Source of the DNA: Stegostoma tigrinum
Taxonomy: Eukaryota
Reading direction: 5' to 3'
Assembly (NCBI RefSeq): GCF_030684315.1
Contig: NC_081373.1
Location: 40,587,989 to 40,651,988 of the forward strand
DNA: 64,000 nucleotides
The notes under the pieces were generated by a model. It saw only the letters and a program-made list of their open reading frames with translations, was not told the DNA's origin and ran no database searches. Shown here piece by piece: positions 4,808 to 62,420 of the stretch. The translations under genes were made by a program, and so were the position numbers. Each line of letters starts with the position of its first letter. The first letter of the stretch is position 1.

Positions 4808-7090
4808 AATATTGACTCCAGACCCCGTGAAGTCTCATGGCTTCAGGTTAAACATGGGCAAGGAAACCTCCTGCTGGTTATCACATACCACCCTCCCTTT
4901 AGATGATGAAGCAATGCTCCTCCAGGTTGAACAACCCTTGGAGGAAGCACTGAGGATGGCAAGGACACAAAATGTACTCTGAGAGGGGGGCTTTCAATGT
5001 CCACCATGAAGAGTGGCTCAGCAGCAGTTCTACTGATCAAGCTGGTCGGGTCCTAAAGGAAGTAGTTGCTAGATTGCGGTCTGCAGCAGGTGGTGAGGGA
5101 ACCAACAGGGAAAAACATACTTGATCTCATCCTTACCAGTCTGCAAGCTGCAGATGCATCTGTCCATGACAGTATTGGTAAGATTGACCATTGCACAGTC
5201 CTTTTGGAGACAATGTCCAGCCCTCACACTGAAAATAACCTCCATCGTGTTGTATGGCACTATCGCCATGCTACATGGGACAGACTTCAAAAAGATCTAG
5301 CAACTTAAGACCGGGCATCCATGAGGCGCCATGGGCCGTCCACAGCAGCAGAATCGTACTCCAACATAATCTGTAACCTCAGGGCCCGACATATCCCTCA
5401 CCCAACCATTACCATCAAGCCAGGGGATCAATGCTGGTTTGACAGAGAGTGCTGGAGGACATGCCAGGAGCAGCACCAGGCACACCCGAAGATGAGGTAT
5501 CAACGTGGTGAAACCACCAAACAGGGTTACTTGCGTACCAACATCAAAAGCAGCAAGCAATAGACAGAGCAAAATGATCCCACAACCAACGGATCAGAAC
5601 TAAGCTCTGCAGTCCTGCTACAGCCAGTCGTGAATGATGACGGACAACTAAACAACTCACTGGAGGAGGAAGCTCCACAAATATCCCCATCCGCAATGAT
5701 GAAAGAGTCCAGCACATGAGTGCAAAAGATAAGACTTTATCCCCAGCATTACAAATACCAGTCTTCAGCCAATACAATTCATTCCATGTGATAGCAAGAA
5801 AGATTGGAGACACTGGATACTGCAAAGGCTTTGGGCCTTGACAACATTCTGGCAATTAAACTGAAGGCTTGGGCTCCAGAATTTGCCATTCCCCTGGCCA
5901 AGCTGCGTCAGTACAGTTATACACTGTCATCTACCTAACAATGTGGAAAATTGCCCAAGTATGTCCTGTGCATGAAAAGTAGGACAAACCCAAACTAGCT
6001 AATTATTGCCCCAGCAATCTCTCAATCATCGGTAAAGTGATGGAAGGTGTCTTCAACAGTGCTATCAAGCAGCACATACTCAGCAATAATTTGCTCAGTG
6101 ATGCCCAGTTTGGGTTCTGCCAGGGCCACTCAGCTCCTGACCTCATTACAACCTTAGTTAAAACATGGACAAAAAGCTGAAACCCAGAGGTGAGATAAAA
6201 GTGACAGCCCTTGACATCAAGAAATTATTTGAATGACTGTGGCATCAAGGAGCTTGAACAAAACTGAAATCAATGGGTATCGGGGGAAATTTCTCCAAAG
6301 GTAGAGATATGACTAAGACATAGGAAGATGGTCATCATTGTTGGAGGTCAGTCATCTCAGCTCCAGGACAGTTTTGCAGGAGTTCCTCATATTAGCGTCC
6401 TATGCTCAGCCATCTTCAGCTGCTTCATCAATGACCTTCCCTCCATCATCGGGTCAGAAGTGGAGATGTTCGCCAGTAACTGCACAACATTCAATACCAT
6501 TCACAACTCCTCAGATAGTGAAGCAGAATACTGTGGCAAGTAACTCACCTTCTGAGTCCTCAAAGCCTGTCCAGCATCTACAGGGCACATGTCAGGAGTG
6601 TGATGGAATACTCCCAACTTGCCTGGATGAGTGCAGCCCCAACAACACTCAAGAAGCTCGACACCATCCAGGACAAAGCAACGCGCTTGATTGGCACTGC
6701 ATCCACAAACATCCATTCCCTCCACCACTGACGCTGAGTAGCAGCAGTGTGTACTATCTACAGATGCCCTGCAGAAATTCACCGAAGCTCCTCAGACAGA
6801 ATTTTTCAAACCCAAAACCACTTCCATCTAGAAGGACAAGGGCAGCAAGTACATAGGAACACCATCACCTTCAAGTCACTCACCACCCTGACTTGGAAAT
6901 ATATCACCATTGCTTCACTGCCCCTGGGTCAAAATCCTGCAATTACCTCCCTCTGGCATTTTGGGTCAACCCACAGCAGGTGGACTGCAGTGGTTCAAGA
7001 AAGCAGCTCACCACAACCCTCTCAAGGGCAACTAGGTATGGGCAAGAATGTTGGTCAGCAAGTAACATCCACATGGCACAAAAAATGAAT
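4808..7090 (+). mobile_element. CR1-group LINE family 2 (APE+RT), 5'-truncated, with an internal deletion near 6525
   Basis: GLQQVVREPT, NILDLILT, IGKIDHCTV, QFGFCQGHSAPDL, ALDIK and SCFINDL motifs; tail ctcaagggcaactagg...gaat. Same family as 57804-61224. Confidence 0.9.
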
Positions 7091-8340: not shown

Positions 8341-8666
8341 TTATCCAAAAGAACATTTGACATCATCCTAATGGGTGATGCCTCGTTATCAAGCTTTCGA
8401 GATCCAAATGTAACGATAAATAGTTTTATTTTACACCAATAACTACATTGCAAAGTCATTTATCAGTAAAATTGCTCACCAAGAAAGGTATACAATTTAT
8501 GTTGTTGTAAATTAGAGAAGTGATACTGTCATTTAAAAATTGACCCGGACAGAATATTAACTTTATTTCTGAATTCCAAAATCAGTGCAGAAATTCAACT
8601 CACAGACCTGAGCCAAGACACCTTCTAGCTTTGTTGAACTGAGAAACTAAAGTAACCTAAAAGCTT

Positions 8667-8897
8667 CAGAGATAATAGGAACTGCAGATGTTGGTGAATC
8701 TGTGATAACAAGGTGTAGAGCTCGATGAACACAGCAGGCCAAGCAGCATCAAAGGAGCAGGAAGGCTGACGTTTCGGGCTTAGACCCTTCTTCAGAAAAA
8801 TAAATTTTCCTGAAGAAGAGTCTTGGCCTGAAACGTCAGCCTTCCTTCTCTTCTGATGCTACCTGGCCTGCTGCGTTCATCCAGCTCTACACCTTGC
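8667..8897. mobile_element. Palindromic PLE family A mini-insertion (two head-to-head pLTR ends)
   Basis: The two arms are reverse complements. 14-bp TSD TAACCTAAAAGCTT at 8653-8666 and 8898-8911. Confidence 0.9.
8765..8795 (-). ncRNA. Minimal type-I hammerhead ribozyme motif; mirror copy on + at 8810-8840
   Basis: CUGAAGA-aGGGUcuaaGCCC-GAAAC-GUC^AGC: intact core boxes, stem II and palindromic ACGU stem III. Stem I is very short. Confidence 0.65.
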
Positions 8898-8919
8898 TAA
8901 CCTAAAAGCTTGAATGTTT

Positions 8920-10309
8920 GTGATCGGAGATAATGGGAACTGCAGATGTGGGAGATTCCAAGATAACAAAGTGTGAGGCCGGATGAACACAGCAGACCAA
9001 ACAGCATCTCAGGAGCACAAAGGCTGACGTTTCAGGCCTAGACCCTTCATCAGAGAGGGGGATGGGGAGAGGGCTCTGAGATAAATAGGGAGACAGGGGG
9101 AGGCGGACCGAAGATGGAGAGAAAAGAAGATAGGTGGAGAGGAGAATATGGGTGGGGAGGTAGGAAGGGGATATGTCAGTCCAGAAGGACGGACAGGTCA
9201 AGGAGATGGGATGAGGTTAGTAACTTTCCCCCCACAGTGGTTGAGAACGTCCTTGACCGTGTCTCCCGCATTTCCTACAACACATCTCTCACACCCCGCC
9301 CCTGCCTCAACCGCCCTAAGAGGATCCCCCTCGTTCTCACATACCACCCCACCAATGTCCGGATACAACGCATCATCCTCCGACACTTCCGCCATCTACA
9401 ATCCGACCCCACCACCCAAGACATTTTTCCATCCCCACCCTTGTCTGCCTTCCGGACAGACCACTTTCTCCGTGACTCCCTTGTCCGCTCCACACTCCCC
9501 TCCAACCCTACCACGCCCAGCACCTTCCCCTGCAACCACAGGAAGTGCTATACTTGCGCCCACACCTCCTCCCTCACCCCGATCCCAGGCCCCAAGGTGA
9601 CTTTCCATATTAAGCAGATGTTCACCTGCACATCTGCCAATGTGGTATACTGTATCCACTGTACCCGGTGTGGCTTCCTCTACATTGGGGAAACCAAGCG
9701 GAGGCTTGGGGACCGCTTTGCAGAACACATCCACTCGGTTCGTAATAAACAACTGCACCTCCCAGTCGCGAACCATTTTAACTCCCCCTCCCATTCCTTA
9801 GATGACATGTCCATCATGGGCCTCCTGCAGTGCCACAATGATGCCACCCAAAGGTTGCAGGAACAGCAACTCATATTCCGCTTGGGAACTCTGCAGCCCA
9901 ATGGTATCAATGTGGACTTCACAAGCTTCAAAATCTCCCCTTCCCCCACTGCATCCCAAAACCAGCCCAACCTGTCTCTGCCTCCCTAACCTGTTCTTCC
10001 TCTCACCCATCCCTTCCTCCCACCTCAAGCCAACCTCCATTTCCTACCTACTAACCTCATCCCACCTCCTTGACCTGTCCGTCCTTCCTGGACTGACCTA
10101 TCCCCTCCCTACCTCCCCACCTACACTCTCCTCTCCACCTATCTTCTTTTCTCTCCATCTTCGGTCCGCCTCCCCCTCTCTCCCTATTTATTCCAGAACC
10201 CTCTCAGCATCCCCCTCTCTGATTAAGGGTCTAGGCCCAAAACATCAGCTTTTGTGCTCCTGAGATGCTGCTTGGCCTGCTGTGTTCATCCAGCTCCACA
10301 CTTTCTTAT
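8920..10309 (+). mobile_element. PLE family A: 3' part (GIY-YIG + pLTR, about 9220-10309) preceded by an inverted pLTR (8920-9220)
   Basis: ORF 9114-9989 contains CNHRKCYTC...VVYCIHC...YIGETKRRLGDRFAEH. 11-bp TSD CTTGAATGTTT at 8909-8919 and 10310-10320. Confidence 0.93.
9023..9055 (-). ncRNA. Minimal hammerhead ribozyme motif in a PLE pLTR
   Basis: cuCUGAUGA-aGGGUCuaGGCCU-GAAAC-GUC^AG. Confidence 0.65.
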
Positions 10310-13050: not shown

Positions 13051-14171
13051 CTAACCATTTGTAAAGTACTAGTAAATGAAATATCCATTTGCAGGGTATA
13101 AAATTGAGGGTAGCTTTTAATGTATATATAGAATGGCACGGCTATAAAGGTTTAATTGAAATAAGTGTTGCATATATACACAAACATGAATTCTAGCACA
13201 AAATTGTTGTCATTTTACATGCTAGTTTGGCTTATACACAATTAGCTATGGTACTGGTTGAGAGAAACAGCCACTTTTCAATACCAATGTTCCCATACTG
13301 ACAAATGTCCATTGTTCTTTTTTTTGCCCCTGGGAACTGTGTTCCAATCTACTCTGAACTCAGGCAATAATATTCTCCTTTTTCTGACAACTATAAAGGT
13401 CCCCTAGTGAAATCAGTTTGAAAAGTCTGCATCTATTTCTTAACAGGTATGAATTTGCTTCAAAAAGCTGCCTATATTTCAACGCTAATTGGCCATCTTA
13501 TTCAGAAAGCATGCAAAGATGCCTAGCCTGGGAAATGGAAATGAAAGCTGTTATCCTTTACGCTGATAAGCAGAAAGTTTCACCCAAAATTTAAAGTCCA
13601 GAGAAAATCAGATCAGTTCTGGCTGAGAAGCCTCTCTGATATGTTAATATTGCAGCTCCAGCATCAATACACAGTGCACTGTCACAGATGTGAAAATTAC
13701 ATTACTGCACCAGATTAGAGCCTGATTTGACTCCTGCAGAGACTGCATGAGATTCCAAGAGTGAATAGTGTAAGTGAGTGGAATCTTAGCGGGCCCTGAA
13801 TGACGTGGGCTACGGCAAGAAATCTGAGGGCATCGCATGAGAGGTCAATTGAGGCCTTTCTCAACATTAGGAACAACAAATCGCATTTTCCAACAGAGCT
13901 CCAGGCTTCAAGATGAGATTGTTGCTAGTAAGTAGTGTGATGTCTATTAACAGGAATTATCGCTCATTATCACCCACAGTACTTATCAAACCCTCCACCG
14001 GAGAGAAACTAGATACTGAGAATTCCTAATATCAGAGTCAGAGTGGGCACTTGAAAACTCTGCAGCTCAGTCTGCTCCCTTGGACCTCTAGCCTGGGCAC
14101 CTGGCATAAACGCCTCAGGGCATGCTCCAACCCAGCAAACTCTTCAAATCCACCTGTAGTCCATTTCTTTA

Positions 14172-14524
14172 TTCTTTTTCAGTCATTCACAGACTGACGG
14201 TGTCGCTGGCTAGGCCAGCATTTATTTTCCACCCCTAATTGCCCAGAGAGCAGTTATCAATCAACTGCATTGCTGTGGGTTTGGAGTCACATGTACACCA
14301 GATCAGGTAAGGATGGCAGTTTCCTTCCCTAAAGGTGCACCAGATGGCATTTTCTGACAATTCGCAATGGTTTCACAGTCAACATTAATCTCTTAAGTCT
14401 AGCTATCTATTGAATTTAAATTCCACCATGTGCCATGGCAGGGTTTAGAGCCAGGTCCCTAGAACATTACCTGGGTCTCTGGATTTACATTCCAGTGATT
14501 ATACCACTAGACAATTGCCTCCCC
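14172..14524 (-). mobile_element. tRNA-derived SINE, full length, sharing head/body and tail with LINE family 2
   Basis: Degenerate A box (ttgtctagtgg) and B box (ggctctaaacc); body ...tagggaaggaaactgccatccttacc...; tail ggcaattagggg...aataaatgctggcctagccagcgacacc...gaatga. Confidence 0.85.
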
Positions 14525-20224: not shown

Positions 20225-21595
20225 AAGGTAATGGCCTTGTGGTACTATCATTAGACTATTAATACATAAAACAGGAAATGTTCAATGGAACTACATTCAA
20301 TCTTTGTGATGACAGATGATGGAATTTGAATTCCATTTTTAAAAAGTTGGAACTAAAACATCTAGCAATGACCATGAAACTATTGTCAATTGTCAGGAAG
20401 ATCTGATCTGGTTCACTAACACCCATTAGGGAAGAAAGCTGCTGCCTTCTGGAATGGCAGGCGGTGACAAGTGGAGTACCACAAGGTTCGGTGCTGGGAT
20501 CGCAGCTATTTACAATAGACATTAATAATATAGATAAAGGCATTAAAAGTAATATTAGCAAATTTGCTGGTGACACAAAGCTGGGTGGCAGGGTGAAATG
20601 TGAGGAAGATGTTACGAGAATACAGGGTGACTTGGACAGGCTAGGTGAGTGGACAGATGCATGGTAGATGCAGTTTAATGTGGATAAATGTGTGGTGATC
20701 CACTTTGGTGGCAAGAACAGGAAGGCAGATTACTATCTAAATGGAGTCAAGTTAGGTAAAGGGGAAGTTCAACGAGATCTGGATGTTCTTGTACATCAGT
20801 CAATGAAAGCAAGCATGCAGGTACAGCAGGCAGTGAAGAAAGCTAATGGCATGCTGGCCTTCATAACAAGACGAATTGAGTATAGGAGCAAAGAGGTCCT
20901 TCTGCAGCTGTAAAGGACCCAGGTGAGACCGTACCTTGAGTACTGTGTGCAGTTTTGGTCTCCAAATTTGAGGAAGGACATTCTGGCTATTGAGGGAATG
21001 CAGCTTAGGTTCACGGGGTCAATTCCCGGAATGGTGGGACTATCATATGTTGAAAGATTGGAGCGACTGGGCTTGTATACTCTTGAGTTTAGGAGGATGA
21101 GAGGGGATCTGATTGAGACGTATAAGATTATTAAGGGATTGGACAATCTGAAGGCAGAAAGTATGTTTCCGTTGATGGGGGAGTCCAGAACCAGAGGACA
21201 CAGTTTAAAAACAAGGGGTAGGCCATTTAGAACAGAGTTGAGGAAAAACTTCTTCACCCAGAGAGTGGTAGATATATGGAATGCTCTGCCCCAGAAGGCA
21301 GTGGAGGCCAAGTCTCTGGATAGTTTCAAGAAAGAGATAGATAGAGCTCTTAGAGATAGTGGAATCAAGGGTTATGGGGATAAGGCACGAACAGGATACT
21401 GATTGTGGATGATCAGCCATGATCATAATGACTGGTGGTGCTGGCTCGAAGGGCCGAATAGCCTACTCCTGCACCTATTGTCTATTGTCTATTGACTATA
21501 GACCCACGACAATGTGGTTGACTCTTAACTGTTCTCTGGGCAATTAGGTTTCACTGGCCTAATCAGTAATGCCCTGCTCATGAATTTACAAAAAG
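20225..21595 (+). mobile_element. tRNA-derived SINE (same family as 14172-14524), split into 20225-20446 and 21494-21595 by a CR1
   Basis: Head tggccttgtggtactatcattagactattaat...tagggaagaaagctgctgcc resumes after the CR1 as gacccacgacaatgtggttgactcttaactgttctctgggcaattagg. Confidence 0.8.
20447..21494 (+). mobile_element. CR1 LINE 3' fragment, young
   Basis: TSGVPQGSVLG, FAGDTKLGG, RPYLEYCVQFW and SRTRGHSL motifs; (ctattgt)n tail. Confidence 0.95.
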
Positions 21596-21885
21596 GAATA
21601 GGAGTAGGCCTTTCAGCCCACGGGGTATACAACTCCATCTTTTTTCTCCTGTATGGATCAAAAATCTGTCTAAGATTACCTTGAATATATTCAATGATCC
21701 AGCCTCCTCCCCTGTCTGCAGTGGGAAATTTCCAAAGATTAACAACCCCCTGAGAAAAGAAATTTCTCTTCATATCCGTCTTAAAGGTGCCACCCTTTAT
21801 TATGAACAGTAGCTCTAATTCTAAATTCCCCACAAGAGGAAACATTCTCAAGCATCCACCCTGTTGACTCCTTTCAAAATTTTAT
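21595..21885 (-). mobile_element. CR1 3' fragment
   Basis: FKTDMKRNFFSQGVVNLW on the minus strand. Confidence 0.8.
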
Positions 21886-22151
21886 TATTTTTTATTCATT
21901 CATTGGATGTGAGTGTCACTGTCTAGACCAAAATGGATTTCCAATTCTACCTTTCACTGGAGAAGGTAGTTGTGAATTGCCTTCTTGAATTTCCGCTTAG
22001 GCTGTAGAGGAACCCACGTTGCTTCAAGGAAGGATGTTCCATAAGGTTATCCTTGTGACAGTGAAGCAACAGTAATATACTTCCAAGTCATGATGGTGAA
22101 TAGATTGGAGGGCTGCTGTTCCTATCATCCTGTTGCCCTCATGTTCCTAGG

Positions 22152-22572
22152 TGTAATGATTGTAACGAGGTTAGCTGGGTAGACCTCATAGAATATGAGA
22201 TAACAAGGTGTGGAGCTGGATGAACACAAGCAGGCCAGGCAGTATCAGAGGAGCAAGAAAGCTGATGTTTCAAGTCAGGACCCTTCTTCTGAAGAAGGGT
22301 CCTGACCCGAAATGTCAGCTCTCTTGCTCCTCCAATCCTGCAATGTTCATCCAGCTCCACACCTTGTTATCTCATAAATGTCAGTTCCCTGATTGGACCA
22401 GATTAATAGACCCCATCAGGGAGTCCGGGCTGACAGATATAAACAGGAGAGTCAGAGGTTCTGTTCACTTGGATCTGGCTCGAAGGGAGCTGGATCGGTG
22501 TCAAGGATCCTCCATGTGTAAATAAAAGGTGATTTGGTAACTAGGGATATTGGCCTCTGTGGAGTTATTTCA
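22152..22572 (+). mobile_element. Solo LTR of the Gypsy family at 51827-56456
   Basis: TGTAATGATTG...GAGTTATTTCA termini; 5-bp TSD CTAGG at 22147-22151 and 22573-22577; internal TATAAA and AATAAA. Confidence 0.88.
22200..22370. mobile_element. Palindromic PLE mini-insertion inside the solo LTR
   Basis: Arms fuse at ccttcttctgaagaagg. Degenerate TSD ctcatagaatatgag / ctcataaatgtcag. Hammerhead motif on + at 22289-22319. Confidence 0.85.
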
Positions 22573-23167
22573 CTAGGTGGTTGAGGTTCCAAGATAGGAA
22601 GATAGGCAGATGCTGTCCAAGGGATCTTGGTAAATGTTTGCTCTCCAATTTGTTGATAGAGCCCATTATTGCTGTTGTGCATCATGGCGAAGGGCGTGAA
22701 TGTTAATGATAGTGCTAATGAAATAGGTTGTTTATCAGGGTGATATCAGGCTTCTTCAGTGCTGTTGAAGCTATACCCATTCAGGCAAATGCAGAGTATT
22801 CCAACACACTGTTGACAAGTGCCTTCTAGATGGCAGGCAGCAAATAAGGAGACAGGAAGTGAGTTACTCACTGTGCAATTCCTAGCCATATCTAAACTCC
22901 AGTGAATATAGGTCTAAGTTTTCAATCTATCCCATAAGATAACACCTTCATCCCAGGAATCAACCAAGTGAAACTTCTGTGACCTTCTTCCAATGGAAGT
23001 GTATCCCTCCTTAAAAAAGGAGGCCAAACATTGTGCCTGGAATACTGCATTATATCCCAATAACCTTTACTGTTGTAGCAAGACTTTCCCATCAGAACCT
23101 TACAACTTGTCCAAAATGTCATCCCTCTCTACATGTCAAGGTGGGCAGTGGTAGGTACCAGTGGTAG

Positions 23168-24878: not shown

Positions 24879-27249
24879 CTACTTTCAACTTCCGCCAACA
24901 CCACAGCTGGCCCTTTCAAAGTCGCAATGCCAACAGTATTTTCCGACTCTGATTCAATTACTCATTAATCCAAATGATGTACAACACTACCTTCAATTGA
25001 GTTAATGGAGGCTACCTTTCATTCTTTTAAAAAATAATCAGTTGAATTTATTTTGTCATCAGGCTAGAAGGCAAAATAAATGGCTCCAACTCACAGGACT
25101 TCACTGTGTGAAATCAACGCGATTTCTACCTAAAACAGATGAGAAATAAACTCACAGTCCACACATTTATTGATACTAAAAATGCATCTTTGTTAAATTA
25201 ATGCCTTAGCCCATTCAACAGGAGCCATGTGGATATCCTGATGACGCCATCTATGTTGCCAGTAATGTAGTGGACTCTATTTTGAGGCTCACTGTTAGTG
25301 ACTTGTGTTATGAAAAGCAAGATGATGATTAAAAGGAGTGGAAATTACTCACTTATAAAGTCAGAACTGCTGGACCCACAGAATTTTAAAGGGAATTGGG
25401 TTGAAATAAAACAAACAAAATTTGCAGGAAATATTCTCAAAGTAGCTTTTCTGGAAACAAGGGCAGCTGGATGGTAAAATAAAGGGAACGAGCCTGAGGT
25501 GAATATAATACTGGCAGCCAGAGGATTCTAAATTAGGAGTTAAAATATCAGCATGAAATATATTGAAGTCATTTGTCTTTACTTTGTGCCAAATTTATAT
25601 CCTCCTCTCTGATGCATTTTTTGCTGATGTTTGAGTCCAATGAATGGATTTGACATTACATCTAGTGAGTTTGCATTTGATGGGAGAGGCAAGACATTAA
25701 ACGGTTATTGATTAAAACAAAAGGTGTTAACATTCCAGGACATTTTGTACATGGTACCAAGTATCCCATTCTTTTTGACAGAGGGTCTGGAAACCCATGA
25801 ATTTGGAAAAGGAAATCTAGTTCCAACAGGCAGTGGTAAAGCATGGGTCACGATAGAGTTACATCAAGCATTCTGTCTATTCCTCTGGCACTTTCCATTC
25901 AGATGGAAAGGGCCACTTCTGCCTTCTCACATCAAATGGTGATGTTTCCATGCTACCCCGGGGTTTCCACCCTTTATACTCTCCACACTTTTGTGTGGAA
26001 TATATGATACAAAACTTTATAAAGAAAAGATAATCAATTCTGAAAAGAGAGTCCATTGACTTCCAGGAAAACCTACTTCCTCTTCCAGGAGCAGGGGAGG
26101 TGATATACTAAATGTTCTCCCAGAGTTCACCCAACATCCTCTCTGCCAAACTGACTTTCCGGTTCACAGTTGAGAGAGATACAACTGAATTATCCTGCTG
26201 GCCTGTCACATAGATCCTGGCAGAGCAGAAACATATTTGTATGCCACGCAGGTTTCCATAAACCTGTGAAGAAAATGAATTAACCATGGAAACGACCTAT
26301 TTGTGTCTGACCTGTGTATGCTGTATCCTTAATAAGATTGCCAGAAAAAGGAATGGGAGAAATTGGCATCAATATACAACCTAATGCAAATATGAATGCA
26401 GTGGCTCGTCGCTGCTGATTAGAAGCAAAGACTAGCTCCCCCTGACTACCACACACAAATTCCCAGCTGCCACTCACTCGAATCCTACCAACAACATTCT
26501 TTGGGTTTCAATTTATTCTGCTGACTCATGAGTTTTACCAGTATTTAATTAAAGCAATAAGTGGAAGTAAATTAGGAAAAGCATCATGTTGTAACAATTT
26601 TTTTATACCTAGCTGTTCAAATAGATTATGCCACCCTCCAGAAGCAGGTCAGTCTTGAACCTGGATCTTCTTACCCAGAGAAAGGGTCTTTGCCACAAGA
26701 TCTCTCAGTGATCAACTCATTGAGCAATATGCCTCATTAGTCTTGCCAAGTGTGCAGTATGAACAAAATTGAGAAGGAAATGAAGAAAGGTAACCTAGGT
26801 ATGTGGTCAATCCAAAAGAAAAGGAAATTTAAGAAAGCAGAAAGATCCCAGGTTCAGTTATAACCTCAATGTCAGTGAGTTTGTTTTGCTGCAATTGGAA
26901 AGCTAGAGACAATTGTCCTTCACAGCTTTCAGAAGTTAAGTTATTGTTGCTTATATAGTCTCAAATTTAAAAATATTCCACCAGTTAAAAGGTAGTGTGA
27001 TTTTCCCCTGCACTGAAAGATATACCTTGATATATTCAAGAGCAATAACAGACCACAGTTTTATTAACTCTGCTAATAATGTGTTACATCCAGAAAAGAA
27101 GCAGTTAAATATCATTAACCTATCTGCTACTTGTGAATAACCTGATTATAAATAACTGAAAAGGACTTTTAAAAGTGACACTGGACAGTACTTTTATTGT
27201 GCAAAAGTCTTCTAAGTCTTTGTGTCTGAAACAAAGCTAAGACCCTCCT

Positions 27250-27934
27250 AGATAACAAAGTGTGGAGCTGGATGAACTCAGCACGCCAAGCAGCATCTTA
27301 AGAGCACAAAAGCTGACGTTTCGGGCCTAGACCCTTCGTCAGAAAAGAGGGATGGGGAGAGGATTCTGAAATAAATAGGGAGAGAGGGGGAGGCGGACTG
27401 AAGACAGATAGAGGAGAAGATAGGTGGAGAGGAGAGTATAGGTGGGGAGGTGGGGAGGGGGTATGTCAATCCGGGGAGGACAGACAGGTCAAGGGGGTGG
27501 GAGGAGGTTGGTAGGTAGGAAATGGAGGTGCGGCTTGAGGTGGGAGGAGGGGACAGGGGAGAGGAAGAACAGGTTGGGCAGGCGGGACAAGCTGGGCTGG
27601 TATTGGGATGCAGTGGGGAGACGGGAGATTTTCAAGCTGGTGAAATCCACATTGATATCATTGGGCTGCAGGGTTCCCAAGTGGAATATGAGTTGCTGTT
27701 CTTGCAACCTGAGGCTGGCATCATTATGACACTGCAGGAGGCCCAGAATGGACATGTCGTCCAATTAATGGGAGGGGGGAGTTGAAATGGTTCACGACTG
27801 GGAGGTTCAGTTGTTTAGGTCTAGGCCCGAAACCTCAGCTTTTGTGCTCCTAACATGCTGCTGGGCCTGCTGTGTTCATCTAGCTCCACACTACGTTATC
27901 TCGGATTCTCCAGCATCTGAAGTTCCCATTATCT
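27250..27934 (-). mobile_element. PLE family A 3' end (minus, to about 27812) plus an inverted pLTR arm (+, about 27817-27934)
   Basis: DDMSILGLLQCHNDASLRLQEQQLIFHLGTLQP on the minus strand. TSD CTAAGA(C/G)CCTCCT at 27237-27249 and 27935-27947. Confidence 0.9.
27312..27342 (-). ncRNA. Minimal hammerhead ribozyme motif, well preserved
   Basis: CUGACGA-aGGGUCuaGGCCC-GAAAC-GUC^AGC. Confidence 0.68.
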
Positions 27935-35689: not shown

Positions 35690-37445
35690 CCTATACCTGC
35701 GGTTTTAAAGGATGTGGCTCCAGAGATGGTGCGGACACTAGTTGAAATATTCAGGAACTGCATGGATTCTGGGAGGGTTTCAATGGTTTGGAAAGCTTAT
35801 ATTAAGACACCTTTGTTCAAGAAGAGTGGGAGACAAAAAGCAGATAATTATGGGTCAATTAGCATTTTCCCAATGATAGATATATGGTTAAAGTCCACTA
35901 TTCTAGAAGAAACAGGGAATTTAGAAAAATGTTTATGTAATCAAACAAATTCAACATGGTTTTGAGAAAGGGAAATGGTGGTTGACAAATCTGAGGATAA
36001 TATAAGTAGAACTGATAATGGGAACTGGTAGATATAGAGGATTCCAATTTCAAAAAGGCATTTAATAAGGTGCCCCATAAAAGATGATTGCACAAGATTG
36101 GAGCCCCCACTATTCGGGATACTGTATTAGCTTGTATTGAGGATGATTAACACAAATAACAGCAAGAGTTTTTATTAATATGTCCGTTTCAGTTTTAGAA
36201 AGGCATAATGAGCGTAGGGCACATGGATTAGTCCTAAGGCCTTAAATATTTACTATCTTTATTAGTATCTTCATGGAGGAGACAGACTGTGATATCTCCA
36301 AATCTGCTGATGATCCAAAATTATGTGGGAGGGCATGTTGTGATGAGGACATAAAGAATCTTTAACGGGATATATACAGGGTGAGTGAGTGGGCAAAAAC
36401 CTGGGAGATGAAGATTTTCATAAGAAAGTGAGTTCTTGCACTATGGTAGGGAGGCATAAGGCGCAACACTATTTAAATAGAGAGAAATATCAAGAAAATG
36501 CTGCACAGCGTGATTTGGAAGCTCTTGTGCATGAAACACAAATTATTAGCAAGCAGGTGCAGCAAATAATTAAGACAACAAATTGAATTTTGGATAACAA
36601 GGTGTAGAGCTGGATGAACACAGCACGCCAAGAAACATCAGATGAGTAGGAAAGCTGACGTTTCGGGTCTCGTCCTTTCTTCAGAAAAAAAAACAAATTA
36701 CCGCAAAAATCATTCTGAAGGGTCTAGACCCAAAACGTCAGCTTTCCTGCTCCTCCGATGCTGCTTGGCCTGCTGCGTTCATCCAGCTCTACACCTTGTT
36801 ATCTCAGATTCTTCAGCATCTGCAGTACCTACTATCTCTAAATTGAATTTTGGCCTCTGTTGATAGTGGCTGGAGTTTAACAGGGAAGTCTTATTATCAC
36901 TGTAATGGGTATTGGTGAGGCTGCATCTGGAGTACTTTGCAGAGTTTTGTTCCCTTTATTTAAGAATAGTGGTATTGGGAAGCAGTTCAATAGAGATTCA
37001 CTAGACTGATTTTGGAATGAAGCAGTTGACTTATCAAGAATGGATAAGCAGGTTTGTCTTTATTCATTAGAGTTTAGAAGAATAACGAATGATCTTATTG
37101 AAACATATGAGATTCTAAGGGGGCTTGACAAAGGCGGACATTGAGAAGATATTTCCACTAGTGGAGGGGGTCTTGAACTAGGATAGTTACAGATTAAATA
37201 GACTTCATTTAAAACAGATGTGAAGAATTTATTTTCCCAGAGGGCAGTAAATGTCCAGAATTTTCTACCCCAGATAGTTACAGAGGCTTTCTGCAAGTAG
37301 TGTGAAATATTAGGGAGTTGACATCCATGCTGAGTTGGCATTAAAGAGGATTTGAAGCTTGGGGCAGATCAACCATCATCTTTTTAAAGAGCAGGACAGG
37401 CTTGAGGGGTTGAATGGACTATTCCAGCTCCTATTTATGTTCTTA
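35690..37445 (+). mobile_element. Old CR1 RT fragment
   Basis: TPLFKKSGRQKADNY, FQKAFNKVPH and SKSADDPKL-like segments; decayed tail. Confidence 0.85.
36594..36839. mobile_element. Palindromic PLE mini-insertion
   Basis: 14-bp TSD AAATTGAATTTTGG at 36580-36593 and 36840-36853; A-rich filler at the centre. Confidence 0.92.
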
Positions 37446-41149: not shown

Positions 41150-43550
41150 CTGCACACAAGATGTGGAAGCTTCTGAATGCCACTGTGATTCAGAGCAAAC
41201 ACGTCTGCAGTTGCAGGACCTTCAGCTCAGAGTCAATGGACCGGAGGCCAAGTTGCAGGTGCTGCAGAAGGGGGAAGGTTGCCTAGACACCTGGTTCCAG
41301 AAGACAATCATTCCCTTTAATCTACAGTCATCTGATTTGGCCAGTGCTCAGGAACGGGCGGGGAAGGCGGGGGAGATGTGTGATTACCGAGAGACTGCGT
41401 ACGAGATCCACATTGTTCAACTGGTTTGAAGTCCTTTCAGCTTGTAGTAAGTGCTGCTAACTGATCATGACACCATGCTTCAGGAAACCATTCAAGCTGA
41501 GGCGCTAACAGGAACAAAATGGTACTAGGGTGCAGAATAGCGAAGGGACTGACATTGTTCCCTGCAGCAAATAGCACTCATCCAAGCGGCTCTGTTGTTT
41601 GCCTAGTGCCAGTGTATGGGACGTCCGCTCTAAACTGGAGAAGAAATTGCAGAGGAAGTGGACAGATCCAGTGAACGTGTTGTAGGTAGGTACCAATGAT
41701 ATAGATAGAACTACGAAAGAGGTCCTGCTGACGCTTTATCAGAAATTAGGGTCTGAATTAGAAAGCAGAGCCTCTAAAGTAATCTCTGGAATTATGATTT
41801 TGAACCACATACAAATTAACATAGGGCAATTAACATTTGAGAAACTAATGCATGGCTCAAAGACTGGTCTGGTAGAAGTGGGATCCAGTTCATATGGGGT
41901 AATGAAATGTGAGGCTGGATGAACACAGCAGGCCCAGCAGCATCTCAGGAGCACAAAAGCTGACGTTTCGGGCCTAGACCGCCCGAAACATCAGCTTTTG
42001 TGCTCCTGAGATGCTGCTGGGCCTGCTGTGTTCATCCAGCCTCATTTCATCATCTTGGATTCTCCAGCATCTGCAGTTCCCATTATCACTGATCCAGTTC
42101 ATATGGCACTGGCACCAGCACTGGGGAAGGTGCGGTTTGTATTGTTGTGATGGTCTATACCTGGAGTGGCAAGCTGTATGACTGGAAAAATAGAAAGGCC
42201 TTTAAACTAATCAAGGGGCAAGGGATCCAGCTCAGATTGATGTTGCAAATAAAGGGGTAGAGTCAAGACAGGGGAGCAAAAGAACAATGTGGGAAATGAA
42301 GGTTAGAGAATTTCTGGACTGGACAGAACAGAAAACTCTAGGAATATACCCAACTGTCAATTCTAAGCATTGCAAAGATAACTAAGGCAAAACCAAACAA
42401 ACAATCTGTATCTGAATGCACAAAGAATGCATAATAAAAGTTTTTTTTTAAATTGATAGGCACACTTCAAAGGAAATAAATGTGATCTAATTGCCATTTT
42501 AATTGCATAGGGCTGCAGTTGATCAAGATTATGTCCTGAATATTAGCAAGTAAATGACATTCAACAACAGGAAGCATGGTCAAGATGGAGGGGTTAGCAC
42601 TCTTAAATCAACCATGACATTCATGCTGTAGTTAGAGATGACCTAGGTTCGGGAGATCAGATGTAGAATCGATTTGAGTGGATATTGGGAATTGTGGAAA
42701 GAAATCACTGGAGCAAAGTGATCTACACTATTCCTAACAATGACCACAATGTTGGGCGAAGTAAGCAAGAAGCAAAATTGTATGTGATGAAGGGATGACA
42801 ATCACCAGGTGACTTTAATTTGAGGAAAACATTGCATGAAGAAAAAGCATTTAATTGTGCAAAGGTGAATCAAAGATCGGATGATTATCCAGAATATAAA
42901 GAACAAGACGCTCGGTGAAAGGTTAATAATGCAAAAAACAGTGAGAGGAAGCTAGAACTTTAAAATTGGATAAAAAGTGCTTTTTTTTTTGCAGGTAGCC
43001 ATAATACAAAAGAATATAGAGTAACTGTTGGGTGTCTAGAGAGTCGGAATGGGGAGTTAGTAGTAAATAACAAAGAAATACTGTATGAATTGAACAAATA
43101 TTTTGCTTATGAATGAATATAATCTGTTTATTCAAGGGAGGGAGGCAGAAGACAGAACATTGTAGGGTATTTAACATGACATTTGTCATGGACCAGATTT
43201 TATAATTAAATATTTAAGGAGATTATAGTTGAGAAATTTGGAAAAATCCAAGGTAGTTGGGACTCGTTAACATGGTTTTGGCAAAGGAAAATCCTATTTA
43301 ACTGTCTGGAGATCTTTGAAGGAGTAAAATGGACTGTACTTGGATTTCCAAAAGGCATTTGACAGGGTGCAACAAAGATTATTGCATGAATTAAAAGCAC
43401 AGACAGTGCTCAAAGACAATAAATTGGTTGGTTAACAGAAAACAAATGTTCTGTTTTATAAATGGGTCACATTGGCAGTATGTGACAAATATTGTCCCAT
43501 GTAGGTCTACATTGGGGCCTCAAAATTTCACAATTTATATCAATGTAATT
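41150..43550 (+). mobile_element. Old CR1 with ORF1 (SGNH esterase-like) and deleted ORF2 pieces
   Basis: RLCCLPSASVWDV, VGTNDIDR and DGLYL are SGNH motifs, followed by YLNA (APE start) and RT remnants. Confidence 0.75.
41898..42090. mobile_element. Palindromic PLE mini-insertion, young
   Basis: Near-perfect arms fused inside hammerhead stem II. Perfect 16-bp TSD GATCCAGTTCATATGG at 41882-41897 and 42091-42106. Confidence 0.95.
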
Positions 43551-56456: not shown

Positions 56457-57803
56457 ATAGGCACTCCACACCATTTTCCCAGATATGGGAGAGGATGCAG
56501 GGGTAGAATTTATTCCGTACATTGGAGATCTTTTTAGCAATACTACCAACATTAAACAACAAGCCACCCCCTGTACAGACCTGTGGAGAAATGGTCGGAG
56601 CCCCATTTTATTTGCTGGTTGAGTAGAAATCCTGCCCTAAGAGTTAGCAGTCAAACGGAGGCTGGTAACTCTCCAGTACCAGCAGCATTACTGGAACAAT
56701 GTTTATGCTGTTAGTCACACTCTGAGACTTTATGGACCATCAGTGGCTTTCTGGAGGTTGAACAGGATGGGGATTGCATGTAGTGGATCGCTTATGAGGG
56801 AGATCAATTGCAAGGACAAGGTAAACACTAGTGATAAGAAATCTAAACTGTAGCAATCACTGAGGAATGAGTACTGGGGGAAACTATTATAACTAAAGGC
56901 TGACAGTGCCCTCGAACTGACGGCCTGCATTCTATGGTCTTTTAAGAAGTGGTTGCAGAGTGAGTAGATGCATTGGTTGTGATTTCCCAAATTTCCCTAA
57001 ATTCTGGAAAGATCCTGGCAAATTGGAAGATCACAGAAATCACATCTCTAATCAAGAAATGAGGGTGACAGAACACAAGATCCTATATTGCCTGTTAGCA
57101 CAGCATTTGTCAAAAGGAAAATGCTCAAATCCATTACAAATTCAGACAGAGCCAAACTAGTTTTGTGCAAGAGGGATCATATTTAACTAACTTATTGGCA
57201 TCCTTTTTAAAAAAGGAACACAAGGTGAATAAAGGAAAGCCTGTAGATGTGGTGTATTTTCAAAAGGCACTTGACAATGTGCCATATCAAAGGTTACTGC
57301 ACAAAATAAGAATTAATGGTATAGAAGAATGTTTAGGCAAGAGGGAGATATGAGTTGGGTGGCAAGCTGTAACTAGTACTGTGTCACAGAGATTAGTGTT
57401 GGGCTTCACTATTTATGGTGTATATTAATGACTTTGATTAAGGGACCAAATGCGCAGTGGCTAACTTCACTGATGACAGACAGGCAGGAAAGTAGGGTAA
57501 TCTGTCAAAATGAGACAGAGTGTACAAGAGGATCCAATAGATTAATTGAGTGGATAAAAATTTGGCAGATGGAGTATAACATGAGTGTTAATGTGAACTT
57601 GTCAACTTTTGCAGGAAGAATAAATTAGCAGTTTATATATTTAAATGAAGAGAGATTGGAAACCACTATGGTGCAAAAAGATTGGGTGTCCTGGTACAAA
57701 AAACACAAGAAGATAACATGAAGGTGCAGCAAGTTAATAAAGACAACAAATGGAATGTTGATGTTCATGAAAACGGTATCAAGTTTAAATGTAGAGACGT
57801 GTT

Positions 57804-60800
57804 AGGCAAAGGCCTAGTGATATGTGCTAGTGGTATTATTGCTAGACTATTAATCCAGAAACCCAATTAATTTTCTGGGGACTGGTGTTCAAATCCTACC
57901 AGGGCTGAGTGGAATTCGAATTCAATTAAAAAAAGTCTGGAATTAAGACTCTACTGATGACCATGAAACCACTGTCCATTTTCGGGGAAAAACTCGAGGC
58001 CCACTAATGTCCTTCAGGGAAGGAAATCTGCCATCCTCACCTGGTGAGGCCTACATGTGACTCCAGACCCACAGCAATGTGCTTGACCCTCAATTACCCT
58101 GTGAAATGGCCTAGCAAGCCACTGAGTTGTAACAAACACTACAAATTCTCAAAGAAATGAAGCTGGACAGATCACCTGGCATCAAGTGAGGCAGTGGAAA
58201 AGACAACAGCAGAAACAGCCCGGTTGACTGTGCAAAGTCCTCCTCATTAACGTCCGGGGGCTAGTGCCAAAATTGGGAGAGCAGTCTCACAGACTCTTCA
58301 AGCAACTGCCTGACATGGTCATAGTCACAGAATCATACCTTTAAAATTTCCCAGACACCACCATCACCATCCCTGGATATGTCCTGTGCAGCCAGCAGGG
58401 TTGGCGCACAGTGGTATACAGTTGGGATGGTATTGCCCTGGGATTCCTCAACATTGACTCCAAACCCCATGAAGTCTCCTGGCTTCAGGTTAAACATGGG
58501 CAAGGAAACATGTTGCTGAATGTCAGATACCTTCCTTCCTCAGCTGATGAATCCATACTCCTCCACTTTGAATAACACTTAGAGGAAGCACTGACGATGG
58601 CAAGGGCACAAAATGTACTCTGGGTGGGGGATTTCGAAGCCCACCACCAAGAGTGGCTGGGCAGTAGTACTGCTGATCAGGTCCTAAAGGACATAGCTGC
58701 TACACCGGGTCTGCAGCAGGTGGTGAGGGAACCAACAAGACAGAAGAACGCCTTATTCTTGACCTTTATTCTTACTAATCTGTCAGCTGCAGATCCATCT
58801 ATCCATGACAGTATCAGTAAGAGTGACCATTGCACAGTCCTTGTGGAGACAAAGTCCGACCTTCACATCGAGAACACGCTCCATCGTGTTGTATGGCACT
58901 ATCACTGTGCTAAATGGGACAGACTTCACACAGATCTAGCAACTGAAGACTGGGGCATTCATGACGTGCTGTGGGCCATCAACAGCAGCAGATTGATACT
59001 CCAGCATATCACTCACTCAACCATTATTATTAAGCCAGGGGATCAAACCCAGACAGTTCAATTAAGATCGTTAATGAGGAGGGGATGCCAGCATCAGCAT
59101 GACACATATCTGAAATTGATGTCTCAAGCTGGTGAGGCGACTAAAGAGGACTACTTCCATGTCAAACAGCAAATGCAGCAAGTGATAGACAAATCAAAGC
59201 AATCCTACCACCGATGGATCAGATCCAAACTCTGCAGAGATAATGGGAACTGCAGATGCTGGAGAATCCAACATAAAGTGTGGGGCTAGATGAACACAGC
59301 AGGCCAAGCAGCATCTTAGAAGCACAAAAGCTGCCTCTGCCTTCATCAGAAAAGGATCTGATGAAGGGTCTAGGTCCAAAACGTCAGCTTTTGTGCTCCT
59401 AAGATGCTGCTTGGCCTGCTGTGTTCATCCAGCCCCACACTTTATTATCCCAAACTGCAGTCCTGCCACATCCAGTCGTGAATGGTGGTGGACAATTAAA
59501 TAATTTACTGGGGGAGGAGGCTCCATAAATATCCCCATCCTGAATGATGGAAGAGCCCAGTATATCAGTGCAAAAGATAAGGCTAAAGCATTCGCAGCAA
59601 TCTTCAGCCAGAAGTGCCAATTCAATGAACCATCTCGGCCTCCTCCAATGGTCCCCAGCGTTATAGATACTAGTCTTCAGCCAATTCAATTCATTCCATG
59701 TGTCATCAAGGAAGAGTTAGAGACACTGGATACTGCAAAGGCTACAGGCATTGACAAAATTCTGGCAATGGTACTGAAGACTTGTGCTTCAGAACTTGCT
59801 GCTTCCCTAGCCATACTATTCTAGTACAGTTACAACAGTGATATCGACTCAACAGATGTGGAAAATTGCCTAAGTATGTTCTCTACACAAAAAAACAGGA
59901 TAAATCCAACCTGGCCAATTACCACCCCATTAGTCTAGTATCAATCATCAGTAAAGTGATGGAAGGTGTCAACAACAGTGTTGTCGAGTAGCCCCTACTC
60001 AGCAATAACCTGCGCAGCGATGCCTAGTTTGTGTTCCATCAGGGCCACACAGCTCCTGACCTCATGACAGTGTTGCTTCAAACATGGACAAAAGAGCTGA
60101 ATTCCAAAGTGAGGTGAGAGTGACAGTCCTTAACATCAAGGTTTATTCGACCAAGTGTGGCATCAAGGAACCCTAGCGTAACTGGAATCGATGAGTATCA
60201 GGGGGCAAACTCTCCACCAGTTGGAACCATACCTGACACATAGAAAGACGGTCGTGGTTGTTGGAGGTCAGTCATCTCCGCTTCAGTACAGCTCTGCAGG
60301 AGTTCCTCAGGGTAGTGTCCTCAGCCCAACCATCTTCAGCTGCTCCATCAATGACCTTCCCTCCATCACAAGGTCAGAGGTGGGCATGTTTGCTGATGAG
60401 CGTACAATGTTCAGCACCATTCATGTCTCCTCAGATACTGAAGCAGTCCATGTTCAAATGCAACAAGTTTAGGAAAATGTCCAGGTTTGGGCTGACAAGT
60501 GGCAAGTGACATTTGCACCACAAAAATGCCAGGCTATGACCATCATCAATAAGAGACTACCTATCGCCCCTTGACATTCAATGGTGTTACTGTCACTGAA
60601 TCCCTCACCATTGATATCTTGGGGATTATCATTGACCAGAAACTCAGTTGGATTCACCACATAAACACAATGGCTACAAGAGCAGCCAGAAGCTAGGAAT
60701 ACTGGGGGAAGTGAATCACCTCCTGTCTCAAAGCCTGTCCACCATCTACAGGGCACAAGTCAGGAGTGTGATGGTATACTCCCCACTTGCCTGGCTGAGT

Positions 60801-61224
60801 GCAGCCCCAACAACACTCAAGAAGTTTGAGACCAACCAGGACAAAGGAGCCCCCTTGATTGGTACTGCATCCACCAGCATGCACTCCCTCCACCATCGAT
60901 GCTCAACAGCAGTAGTGTGTACGATCTGCAAGATACACTGCAGAAATTCACCAAAGATCCTCAGACACCACCTTCTAACCCATGACCACTTCCATCTAGA
61001 AGGACAAGTTCCCCCCCCCACCCCCCAAGCCACTCACCACCCTGCCTTGGAAATATATTGCCATTCCTTCCCTGTCCCTGGGTCAAAATCCTGGAATTTC
61101 CTCCCTAATAGCATTGTGGGTCAAGAAGGCAGCTCACCACCACCTTCTCAAGGGCAACTGGAAATTGACAAGAAATGCTGGCCAGCCAGCGGTGCCCACA
61201 TCCCACAAATGAATGTTAAAAAAA
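57804..61224 (+). mobile_element. Full-length LINE family 2: tRNA-derived SINE-like head (about 57804-58130) followed directly by an APE+RT ORF2 pseudo-frame (about 58231-61100), no ORF1
   Basis: A-box-like aggcctagtga at 57810 and B box tgttcaaatcc at 57886-57896; KVLLINVRGLVPKL..PDMVIVTESYL, WVGDF, SKSDH, GVPQGSVLSP and FADE motifs; tail gctggccagccagcggtgcccacatcccacaaatgaatg(A)n. Confidence 0.88.
59238..59449. mobile_element. Palindromic PLE mini-insertion inside the LINE ORF2
   Basis: TSD CCAAACTCTGCAG (59225-59237) / CCAAACTGCAG (59450-59460); centre ccttcatcagaaaaggatctgatgaaggg. Confidence 0.9.
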
Positions 61225-61535
61225 TTGTACATTATCATCATGAGACATCTTCTGGAAGTACTGAGTGAAGTTTTAGTCTCCCGATGTAAGAAATGTTGAA
61301 AATGAGAATGAAGCTGTTCAAAGAAGTTTCATACAACTCATTCCCAGGATGATGGGGTTGATCATGAGGGCAGATTATACAATTTAGTTGTATCCGTTAG
61401 AGTTTAGGAGAATAAGAAGTTATTTTATTGAAATATATCTGATTCTGAGGAGACAGGGTGGATGCTAAGATGATGCTACTCTTGAAGCCGACTCTGGAAC
61501 TTAGGGACATTGTTTAAAAATGAGGAGTTTCCCAT

Positions 61536-62420
61536 TGGTTACAAGAGCAGGACAGAAGCCAGGAACACTGTCACAAGTAACCCACCCCCTGAGTCCCCAC
61601 AGCCTGTCCACCATCAACAAGGAGTGCTGGAATATTCCCCACTTGCCTGCATGAGTTTACCTCCATCAACACTCAAGAGGCTTGACACCATCCAGGACAA
61701 ATCCGCCTGCTTGAATGGCACCTTAGAATCGTACAATCCCTCCCCTGCGGAAGCATGCCATTCAGTCTATCAAGTCCATATTGACCGTCTAAAGAGCATC
61801 CCACCTAGACCCATCCCCCTACACAATCCCAGTAACCTTGCATTTCCGACAGTCAATCAGTCTAACCTACACATCTTTGGACTGTGGGAAGAAACCAGAA
61901 AGCTCAGAGGGAACCCAAACAGATACAGGAAGAACATGCAAACTCCACACAGACAATCACCTGGGTCCCTAGCACTGTGACGCAGCAGTGCTAACCACTT
62001 CTGCCTCCGTGACCCTCATTGACCACATTCACAAGCATCTATTCACTCCACCACTGACACTCAGGAGCTGCATTGTGTACAATCTATAAAATGCACAGCA
62101 GAAATTCATCAAAGATCTTTAGACAGCACCTTCCAAACCCACAATCACCTCCAGCTTGAAGAACAATGGCAGAAGAAACACCAGAATCTGCAAGTTCTTC
62201 TGCAAACCACTCACAGTTCTGACTTGGAAATATGTCACCATTCCTCCACTGTCACTGGGTCAAAATCCTAGAATTCCCTCCCTAAGGGCATTGTGGATCA
62301 ACCTACATCACATGGACTGCTGCAGTTCAAGAAGGCAACTCACTGCCATCTTCTCTAGGATAAACGGTGACAGACAATAAATGCTGGCCAGCCAGCAACA
62401 CACAAGTGAATATGAAAAAA
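61536..62420 (+). mobile_element. LINE family 2 3' fragment, split by an HE1-like SINE
   Basis: LEYSPLACMS..TLKRLDTIQDK; tail aataaatgctggccagccagcaacacacaagtgaatatg(A)n. Confidence 0.85.
61724..62015 (-). mobile_element. HE1-like V-SINE (tRNA head, V domain, CR1/HER1-derived tail)
   Basis: Minus strand: agtggttagcactgctgcgtcacagtgctagggacccag...gtctgtgtggagtttgcatgttcttcc...ggtttcttcccacagtccaaagatgtg...gattcta. Confidence 0.85.

Follow-up and report, generated by a model that had tools for sequence, protein, structure and literature searches.

The window analysed here is a stretch of 64,000 nucleotides (nt) of shark DNA from Stegostoma tigrinum (contig NC_081373.1), and its positions 57804–61224 (+) hold one decayed copy of a long interspersed nuclear element (LINE), composed of a tRNA-like head, a body of the short interspersed nuclear element (SINE) type, a spacer of about 110 nt, an open reading frame (ORF2) for an apurinic/apyrimidinic endonuclease (APE) and a reverse transcriptase (RT), and an A-rich tail. 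Judged from its sequence, it is a dead copy of the 3.3-kb, single-ORF LINE already catalogued as elasmobranch Zenon-1. Comparison across the family showed that the tRNA-like, SINE-type head is the natural 5′ end of the elasmobranch Zenon LINEs. This LINE may well be transcribed by RNA polymerase III (Pol III) from a putative promoter in the head (rough probability 0.55). The SINE-type 5′ end of Zenon-1 and the matching two-ended SINE have apparently been unremarked so far.

Without a nested insert, the element measures 3,199 nt. The tRNA-like head (57804–57905, +) contains a degenerate A box (57810–57820) and a B box (57887–57895), and its start is collinear by eye with that of RhiTyp_Zenon-1, one of the consensuses of Stuart et al. 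2026 (PMC13343379), of which the first 400 nt each were compared here and below. The SINE-type body (57906–58125, +) is common to the free SINE up to about 58087–58095 and is 72% identical to the SINE at 14510–14268. It is followed by the spacer (58126–58233, +), which belongs to the LINE form only and encodes an Arg/Lys/Gln-rich basic extension in the ORF2 frame. The APE begins with KVLLINVRGL at 58234, 430 nt from the 5′ end of the element. The sequence-only reading, which had placed about 320 bp of head and body some 100 bp before the APE start, was accurate, as head and body span 57804–58125 and about 110 nt follow before the APE.

The decayed ORF2 comprises the endonuclease with a linker (58234–59232, +) and the RT domain (about 59890–60690) with a C-terminal part ending in KKAAHHHLLKGN (59455–61160, +), the latter also recovered by tblastn to intact relatives. 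When fragments of the window were searched with Pfam, Exo_endo_phos_2 (PF14529, E 2e-7) and RVT_1 (PF00078, E 2.5e-7) were both above the cut-off, and phmmer with the endonuclease frame gave 581 matches at E ≤ 0.001. Between the two parts lies a later insertion (59233–59454, no strand assigned), a palindromic repeat of an unrelated family. It is 222 nt long, is flanked inside ORF2 by an apparent 6-bp duplication, and is missing from another copy of the same LINE family at 4808–7090 (+), which is 5′-truncated, lacks the head and is 75–85% identical in blastn pieces. The 3′ tail (61146–61224, +) is common to the free SINE, as indicated by alignment and by loose contig ends, and consists of a stem-loop (61177–61190) and an A-rich end. 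In the window copy this end is A7 (61218–61224), short as in an old copy, and A-rich ends were found in three other copies.

The element interrupts a canonical CR1 LINE. The left part of this host (57463–57803, +, reaching left to about 57000) covers the RT region with decayed RT frames and was aligned to the CR1 copy at 20560–20901, and the right part (61225–61489, +) was aligned to 20909–21175. When the two flanks were joined, they gave an unbroken alignment to 20560–21175 with 381 of 636 columns identical and a score of 186, where the best of 30 shuffles reached 44; the junction shows a gap of 7 nt. No target-site duplication was seen at the host CR1 junction. Because the joined flanks align straight through to another CR1 copy, head and ORF2 share a single break of the host. 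The proposal that they had arrived together is supported, since one break encloses both and no SINE remainder stands on the right.

Chance nesting or a consensus-building artefact would explain the arrangement differently: a 5′-truncated LINE would have landed in or next to an abundant SINE, and the true LINE would carry another 5′ untranslated region (UTR). The SINE is indeed very abundant, and one copy of it, at 20230–21590, has a canonical CR1 inside. There, the 3′ half of the CR1 (20440–21440) separates the SINE head (20230–20445) from the SINE remainder (21493–21590), which is ordinary nesting and the mirror image of the arrangement at 57804–61224. Nesting of this kind does not account for the single host break around head and ORF2, nor for the recurrence of the same junction and spacer in all seven published elasmobranch consensuses, in four whale-shark gene models and in bridging contigs. 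This explanation is largely refuted and was considered highly improbable.

The recurrence of the junction was examined in three kinds of sequence. In the published consensuses, the head, body and spacer stood at the start of 7/7 elasmobranch Zenons from five species by eye (RhiTyp_Zenon-1, CarCar_Zenon-1, ScyCan_Zenon-1, HypSab_Zenon-1 and SquAca_Zenon-1, -2 and -3; PMC13343379), and no sequence upstream of the head was present in any of them. Three motifs of the window copy were exact in 7, 6 and 5 of the seven, and by eye the window copy was nearest to the whale-shark consensus. The tRNA-like head was found in 0/3 Zenon consensuses from hagfish and coelacanth. Among proteins, 4 of the 12 close shark-type matches have a translation of head or spacer before the APE, all of them different whale-shark gene models: the match covers the body in P0006 and P0132, the end of the body plus the spacer in P0044, and the spacer in P0075. 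Finally, contigs from four public runs that carry the labels of four organisms were aligned to 57600–59200 at 80% likeness, with their depth used for presence alone and not as copy number; 32 of some 160,000 pieces were inspected individually. The depth jumped at the start of the head. Among the matches listed, contigs of diverged copies bridged the junction in X1 (58049–58273, 39 differences) and X6 (58066–58283, 43 differences), and at spacer positions shared differences occurred in at least 76–127 contigs per position (run X1). Metagenome and viral contigs gave no match to the junction pattern, which is not surprising for DNA of a shark, and a word-based protein search gave just one weak match.

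These results indicate that the junction is not unique to this locus and that full-length family members carry the head and no ORF1, rather than a different 5′ UTR with an ORF1. The description of the element as an amplified, SINE-headed retrotransposon with ORF2 only is borne out at the level of the family. In the published tables, 59 to 2,313 copies were examined per family and ORF2 was broken in nearly all of them, with one cell of the table garbled (PMC13343379, Supplementary Table 3), and the LINE is reported to make up 3.2–6.8% of four shark genomes (Supplementary Table 4), a share that may include SINE copies matching the head. The ORF2 of the window copy is likewise broken, with many stops and frameshifts. 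Separately, in three predicted host-type proteins (P0017, P0035 and P0128) gene models have spliced in pieces of ORF2, by which the element contaminates shark gene annotation.

An identity as canonical vertebrate CR1, which is marked by an esterase ORF1 or by clustering with CR1 elements that have one, was considered and rejected, as the element has no ORF1 and its RT is distant from the CR1 copies of the window. In a FastTree tree of 108 RT pieces, the window copy was at a distance of 1.6 from the unlabelled single-ORF relatives P0013 and P0007, and at 3.3–3.5 from the canonical CR1 pieces of the window, which are short (74 and 123 aa). In the published survey, the elasmobranch Zenons cluster with crustacean elements and not with other vertebrate Zenons, Zenon elements end in poly-A, and all surveyed Zenon and Rex1 elements lack ORF1 (PMC13343379). 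For this reason the view that the head stands "instead of ORF1", and that the absence of ORF1 is unusual, had to be given up: an element without ORF1 is normal for Zenon. The survey says nothing about the head: "tRNA" occurs 0 times in its text, searchable supplement and preprint, "Pol III" also 0 times in the publication, and "SINE" once, in a historical remark. The openly searchable literature, a scope outside which Repbase, Dfam and subscription journals lie, yielded no description of a tRNA-headed shark LINE.

The promoter boxes of the head were then compared. The B box of the window copy (GTTCAAATC at 57887) matches the B-box pattern exactly. The A box at 57810 is degenerate and is disturbed in the window copy by a short duplication behind it. 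The loose ends of 646–765 contigs per DNA-type run before 57827 gave a consensus with an intact A box and became unspecific farther upstream; SINE and LINE copies are indistinguishable in these ends. By eye, both boxes are kept in the consensuses of five species while the sequence between them varies. Six B-box 10-mers occurred 6 times in the first 400 nt per consensus of the published supplement, all in elasmobranch Zenon rows, against a background of several hundred consensus starts. In the head of the window copy, ARAGORN found 0 tRNA genes and Rfam gave no tRNA match; the sister SINE head at 14451–14512 gave a weak tRNA match (13.7 bits, E 1.8). Folding of the leader and of the decayed head was no better than that of shuffles (head z −0.59) and carries little weight either way. 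Of the earlier claim of a tRNA-derived SINE head with A and B boxes, the boxes stood, one exact and one degenerate, and the tRNA origin was not recovered by ARAGORN or Rfam in this copy.

A free SINE with the same head and body, followed by the tail of the LINE without any coding part, lies at 14165–14520 (−), as identified from its identity to head and body and from the tail alignment. It has the first 285 nt or so and the last 75 nt or so of the LINE. The SINE tail aligned to three LINE tails with scores of 49, 36 and 58, and the best of 300 shuffles reached 28, 29 and 37. In the contigs, the commonest branch was this SINE: in each DNA-type run, 872–1,037 contigs depart from the LINE at 58087 to continue with the tail, the branch point lying at 58081–58087, and the depth peak at 58032–58085 indicates that the SINE is very abundant. 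The shared tail, which has a small stem-loop, follows a short microhomology of the TCTC type and starts in the last codons of ORF2 (K-G-N-stop); in the copy at 4808–7090 the ORF2 stop stands directly after KGN (position 6994). Such a microhomology is compatible with an internal deletion of the LINE. Since both the 5′ and the 3′ ends are common to the two, the SINE can be described as the LINE without its middle.

Two further observations concern the SINE forms. A second drop of depth at 58088–58124 may reflect a longer SINE form that departs from the LINE where the body ends; no such form was among the listed loose contig ends. By eye, the SINE at 14k has a head like that of the white-shark and catshark Zenons, and the head at 20k resembles that of the whale-shark Zenon; subfamilies of the SINE may therefore follow those of the LINE. 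An assignment of this SINE to the Deu-SINEs or SacSINE1 was rejected by the Deu domain: the published Deu alignment (PMC7245038) is unlike the body, and two core Deu motifs, searched in the head and the free SINE with up to 3 mismatches allowed, were unmatched. The Meta and UCON3 domains were set aside by eye against the published alignments in the supplement of PMC7245038. As for the V-SINE HE1, we assume that it is a different SINE.

In the simplest account of the origin, the RT of a Zenon element in the ancestor of sharks and rays would have switched onto a tRNA-derived RNA, the fusion would have become the master copy, and the SINEs would then have arisen from the headed LINE by deletion. 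The opposite direction was also considered, in which a tRNA SINE became autonomous by taking up a Zenon ORF2 between body and tail, so that both LINE ends would be SINE-derived. That both ends are common to the free SINE fits this direction as well, and the grouping of elasmobranch with crustacean Zenons leaves room for ORF2 as an incomer (PMC13343379). The position of the shared tail, which begins inside the last codons of ORF2 as a tail belonging to the LINE from the outset would, and the A-rich end, which fits the poly-A tail reported for Zenon (PMC13343379), speak against it, and we regard it as unlikely.

Outside the elasmobranchs, 80 metagenome loci of distant relatives were searched. 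Neither head nor tail had a blastn match in any of them, ARAGORN found no tRNA in the 48 of these loci that were submitted, and an A/B pattern was present upstream in 2 of the 47 loci with a frame of at least 800 aa, neither of them among the nearest relatives. The head appears to be limited to elasmobranch Zenons among the elements compared. In one metagenome contig, both boxes occur in perfect form (L025:183–235), some 40 nt upstream of ORF1 in an unrelated CR1-group element with two ORFs; these could come from a neighbouring SINE or from an independent headed LINE.

How ORF2 is translated was approached from its upstream region. No ORF1 fits there, because no stop-to-stop frame of at least 60 aa lies wholly between 57871 and 58324. 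The ORF2 frame continues upstream across the spacer, where it encodes a basic peptide and has stops at the level of the copy. An AUG at 58157 lies in the +1 frame and was seen by eye in 6/7 consensuses, and several out-of-frame AUGs are present in the leader. Over ORF2 residues 1–239, no conserved Met column was found among 22 close proteins, at a coverage of 1–12 proteins per column, and the three in-frame methionines of the window copy within these residues were shared by 0/5, 1/9 and 0/8 of the covering proteins. Nine intact distant relatives were listed, most with a Met shortly before the endonuclease, and their starts are choices of the gene caller. Because no conserved in-frame AUG precedes the endonuclease or lies in it, ORF2 seems to require a non-AUG start, re-initiation or a frameshift.

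Vertebrate Pol III terminates at runs of at least four T, and its RNAs are normally short and uncapped. The body of the LINE copy in the window has 0 TTTT runs in 2,868 nt, when 6.2 are expected from mononucleotide composition and 3.8 from dinucleotide shuffles (p = 0.013). The same body contains 12 A4, 11 C4 and 9 G4 runs. For comparison, 59 related intact ORF2 frames of at least 600 aa were taken from the 80 metagenome loci (21 shorter ones were dropped); none was without TTTT, the minimum was 2, and the 10 frames with similar T content had 2–13. The copy at 4808 has 4 TTTT runs, none in common with the window copy, and 2 of them are copy-specific as judged by a third copy. Visual inspection of the first 400 nt in the five Zenon-1 consensuses revealed no TTTT, and two T runs in the head of the window copy are missing from the published consensuses; at one of these runs, at 57981, 66–75 contigs per DNA-type run have G. 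The scarcity of TTTT(T) terminators, named beforehand as a mark of Pol III transcription, was found in the body, and it is modest.

Several points weigh against transcription by Pol III. The T-run test draws on a single copy and had been proposed in advance by the sequence-only reading. The copy at 4808 is not depleted (4 TTTT observed, 3.2 expected), and with the head included the window copy has 2 runs when 4.4 are expected (p = 0.13). The 59 control frames are distant CR1-group relatives of other organisms, most of them T-richer and many with ORF1, and one canonical CR1 copy is likewise low, with 1 run in 1,001 nt. The contigs are uninformative on start site, strand or polymerase, the consensuses were compared over their first 400 nt alone, and the B box of the HypSab consensus is imperfect by eye. 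An uncapped Pol III RNA would, in addition, probably need an extra step for efficient translation.

With the same family and the same anatomy, the coding RNA could instead be made by RNA polymerase II (Pol II), from an internal promoter in or behind the head or by read-through from host genes. The head would then have been gained once by template switching and kept as a 5′ marker or processing signal, such as a site cut like a tRNA, with Pol III serving the SINE only. A capped RNA would explain the translation of ORF2 easily, LINEs in general are regarded as Pol II transcripts (PMC5786205), the hagfish and coelacanth Zenons live without the head, and the T-run signal is modest. Against these points stand the A and B boxes, intact at the 5′ end of the consensuses from five species, the lack of T runs in the body as opposed to all 59 controls, the lack of anything upstream of the head in the seven consensuses, and the out-of-frame AUGs of the leader, which would hinder scanning from a cap. 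Transcription by Pol II is a serious alternative, to which we give somewhat less than even odds.

If Pol III transcribes the LINE, the following cycle can be proposed. TFIIIC would bind the A and B boxes of the head, and Pol III would start at the first base and could run through 3.3 kb because the sense strand is without T-run terminators. The promoter would be copied into every full-length insertion. ORF2 might be translated from the uncapped RNA either through a non-AUG start in the spacer or through a shift from the +1 frame opening at 58157, which is the weak step of the scheme; R2 provides a precedent for the translation of an uncapped LINE RNA. The ORF2 protein would bind the 3′ stem-loop tail and insert the RNA by target-primed reverse transcription, which is the mode of other CR1-group LINEs. 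The free SINE, which in structure is the same RNA minus the coding middle, would presumably use the same protein.

The usual view assigns LINEs to Pol II and SINEs to Pol III, with only the tail common to both. Here, a LINE has a SINE head as its own 5′ end, kept across sharks and a ray. If it is made by Pol III, it would be a natural long Pol III messenger, and the translation of such an RNA would become testable. With either polymerase, deleting the middle of a headed LINE offers a direct route to the birth of a SINE, and shark repeat annotation will confuse the SINE with the LINE ends.

Other repeats of the window are related to the element or to its insert. Further 3′ fragments of the same Zenon family lie at 61533–62420, split by another repeat at about 61722–62025, and at 21880–22870 (−). 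The inverted-repeat family of the nested insert occurs at no fewer than 11 other places, for example 8666–9055, 27213–27344, 36555–36843 and 41860–42091. Several of its members contain a core pattern that we take to be hammerhead-ribozyme-like, and the family presumably resembles the ends of Penelope-type elements. In Rfam, this family gave just hairpin-driven microRNA matches below the cut-off.

Fusions of a small RNA to a LINE and uncapped LINE RNAs are both known from other systems. In the U6/L1-type chimeras, a small-RNA 5′ part is fused to a LINE, and the products are one-off dead inserts. R2 RNA is a Pol I co-transcript cut by a 5′ ribozyme, and this uncapped RNA is still translated. Unlike both, the shark fusion is a replicating master form. 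With the elasmobranch Zenon LINEs, the element shares its length (consensuses of 2,886–3,314 nt), the single APE-RT ORF, the absence of ORF1 and the A-rich tail, and over the first 400 nt it is collinear with them by eye; the element itself shows no difference from its family. The Zenons of hagfish and coelacanth (EptBur_Zenon-1/2 and LatCha_Zenon-1, which is CR1-5_LCh) and of invertebrates likewise have a single ORF, no ORF1 and poly-A (PMC13343379); in their first 400 nt, the hagfish and coelacanth elements are without the tRNA-like head or the shared body motif.

Zenon 3′ tails on SINEs have been reported for ZenoSINE of Heliconius (PMC6685494) and for bivalve SINEs with CR1-Zenon tails (PMC11481361). 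As far as described there, these pairs share only the tail, whereas the shark LINE also carries the promoter head and body of its SINE. SacSINE1 and the Deu-SINEs have a head of the tRNA type and a shark host in common with the shark SINE, but by the motifs searched the Deu domain is absent from its body; SacSINE1 was set apart by Deu motifs and not by its own sequence. The tail of the shark SINE matches the tail of the Zenon LINE, and the tail of SacSINE1 is L2-type by report only (PMC5499810). A structural parallel is given by the bipartite short forms reviewed by Kojima 2018 (PMC5786205), namely RIME/Ingi, NARTc, Vingi, Bov-A from Bov-B and R2 deletions, which like the shark SINE combine the 5′ end of a LINE with its 3′ end. 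In that account, bipartite forms are confined to RTE, Ingi, Vingi and R2, and a small-RNA head is thought to have been added later to the short form. In contrast, the shark parent belongs to the CR1 group, and the parent LINE is already headed.

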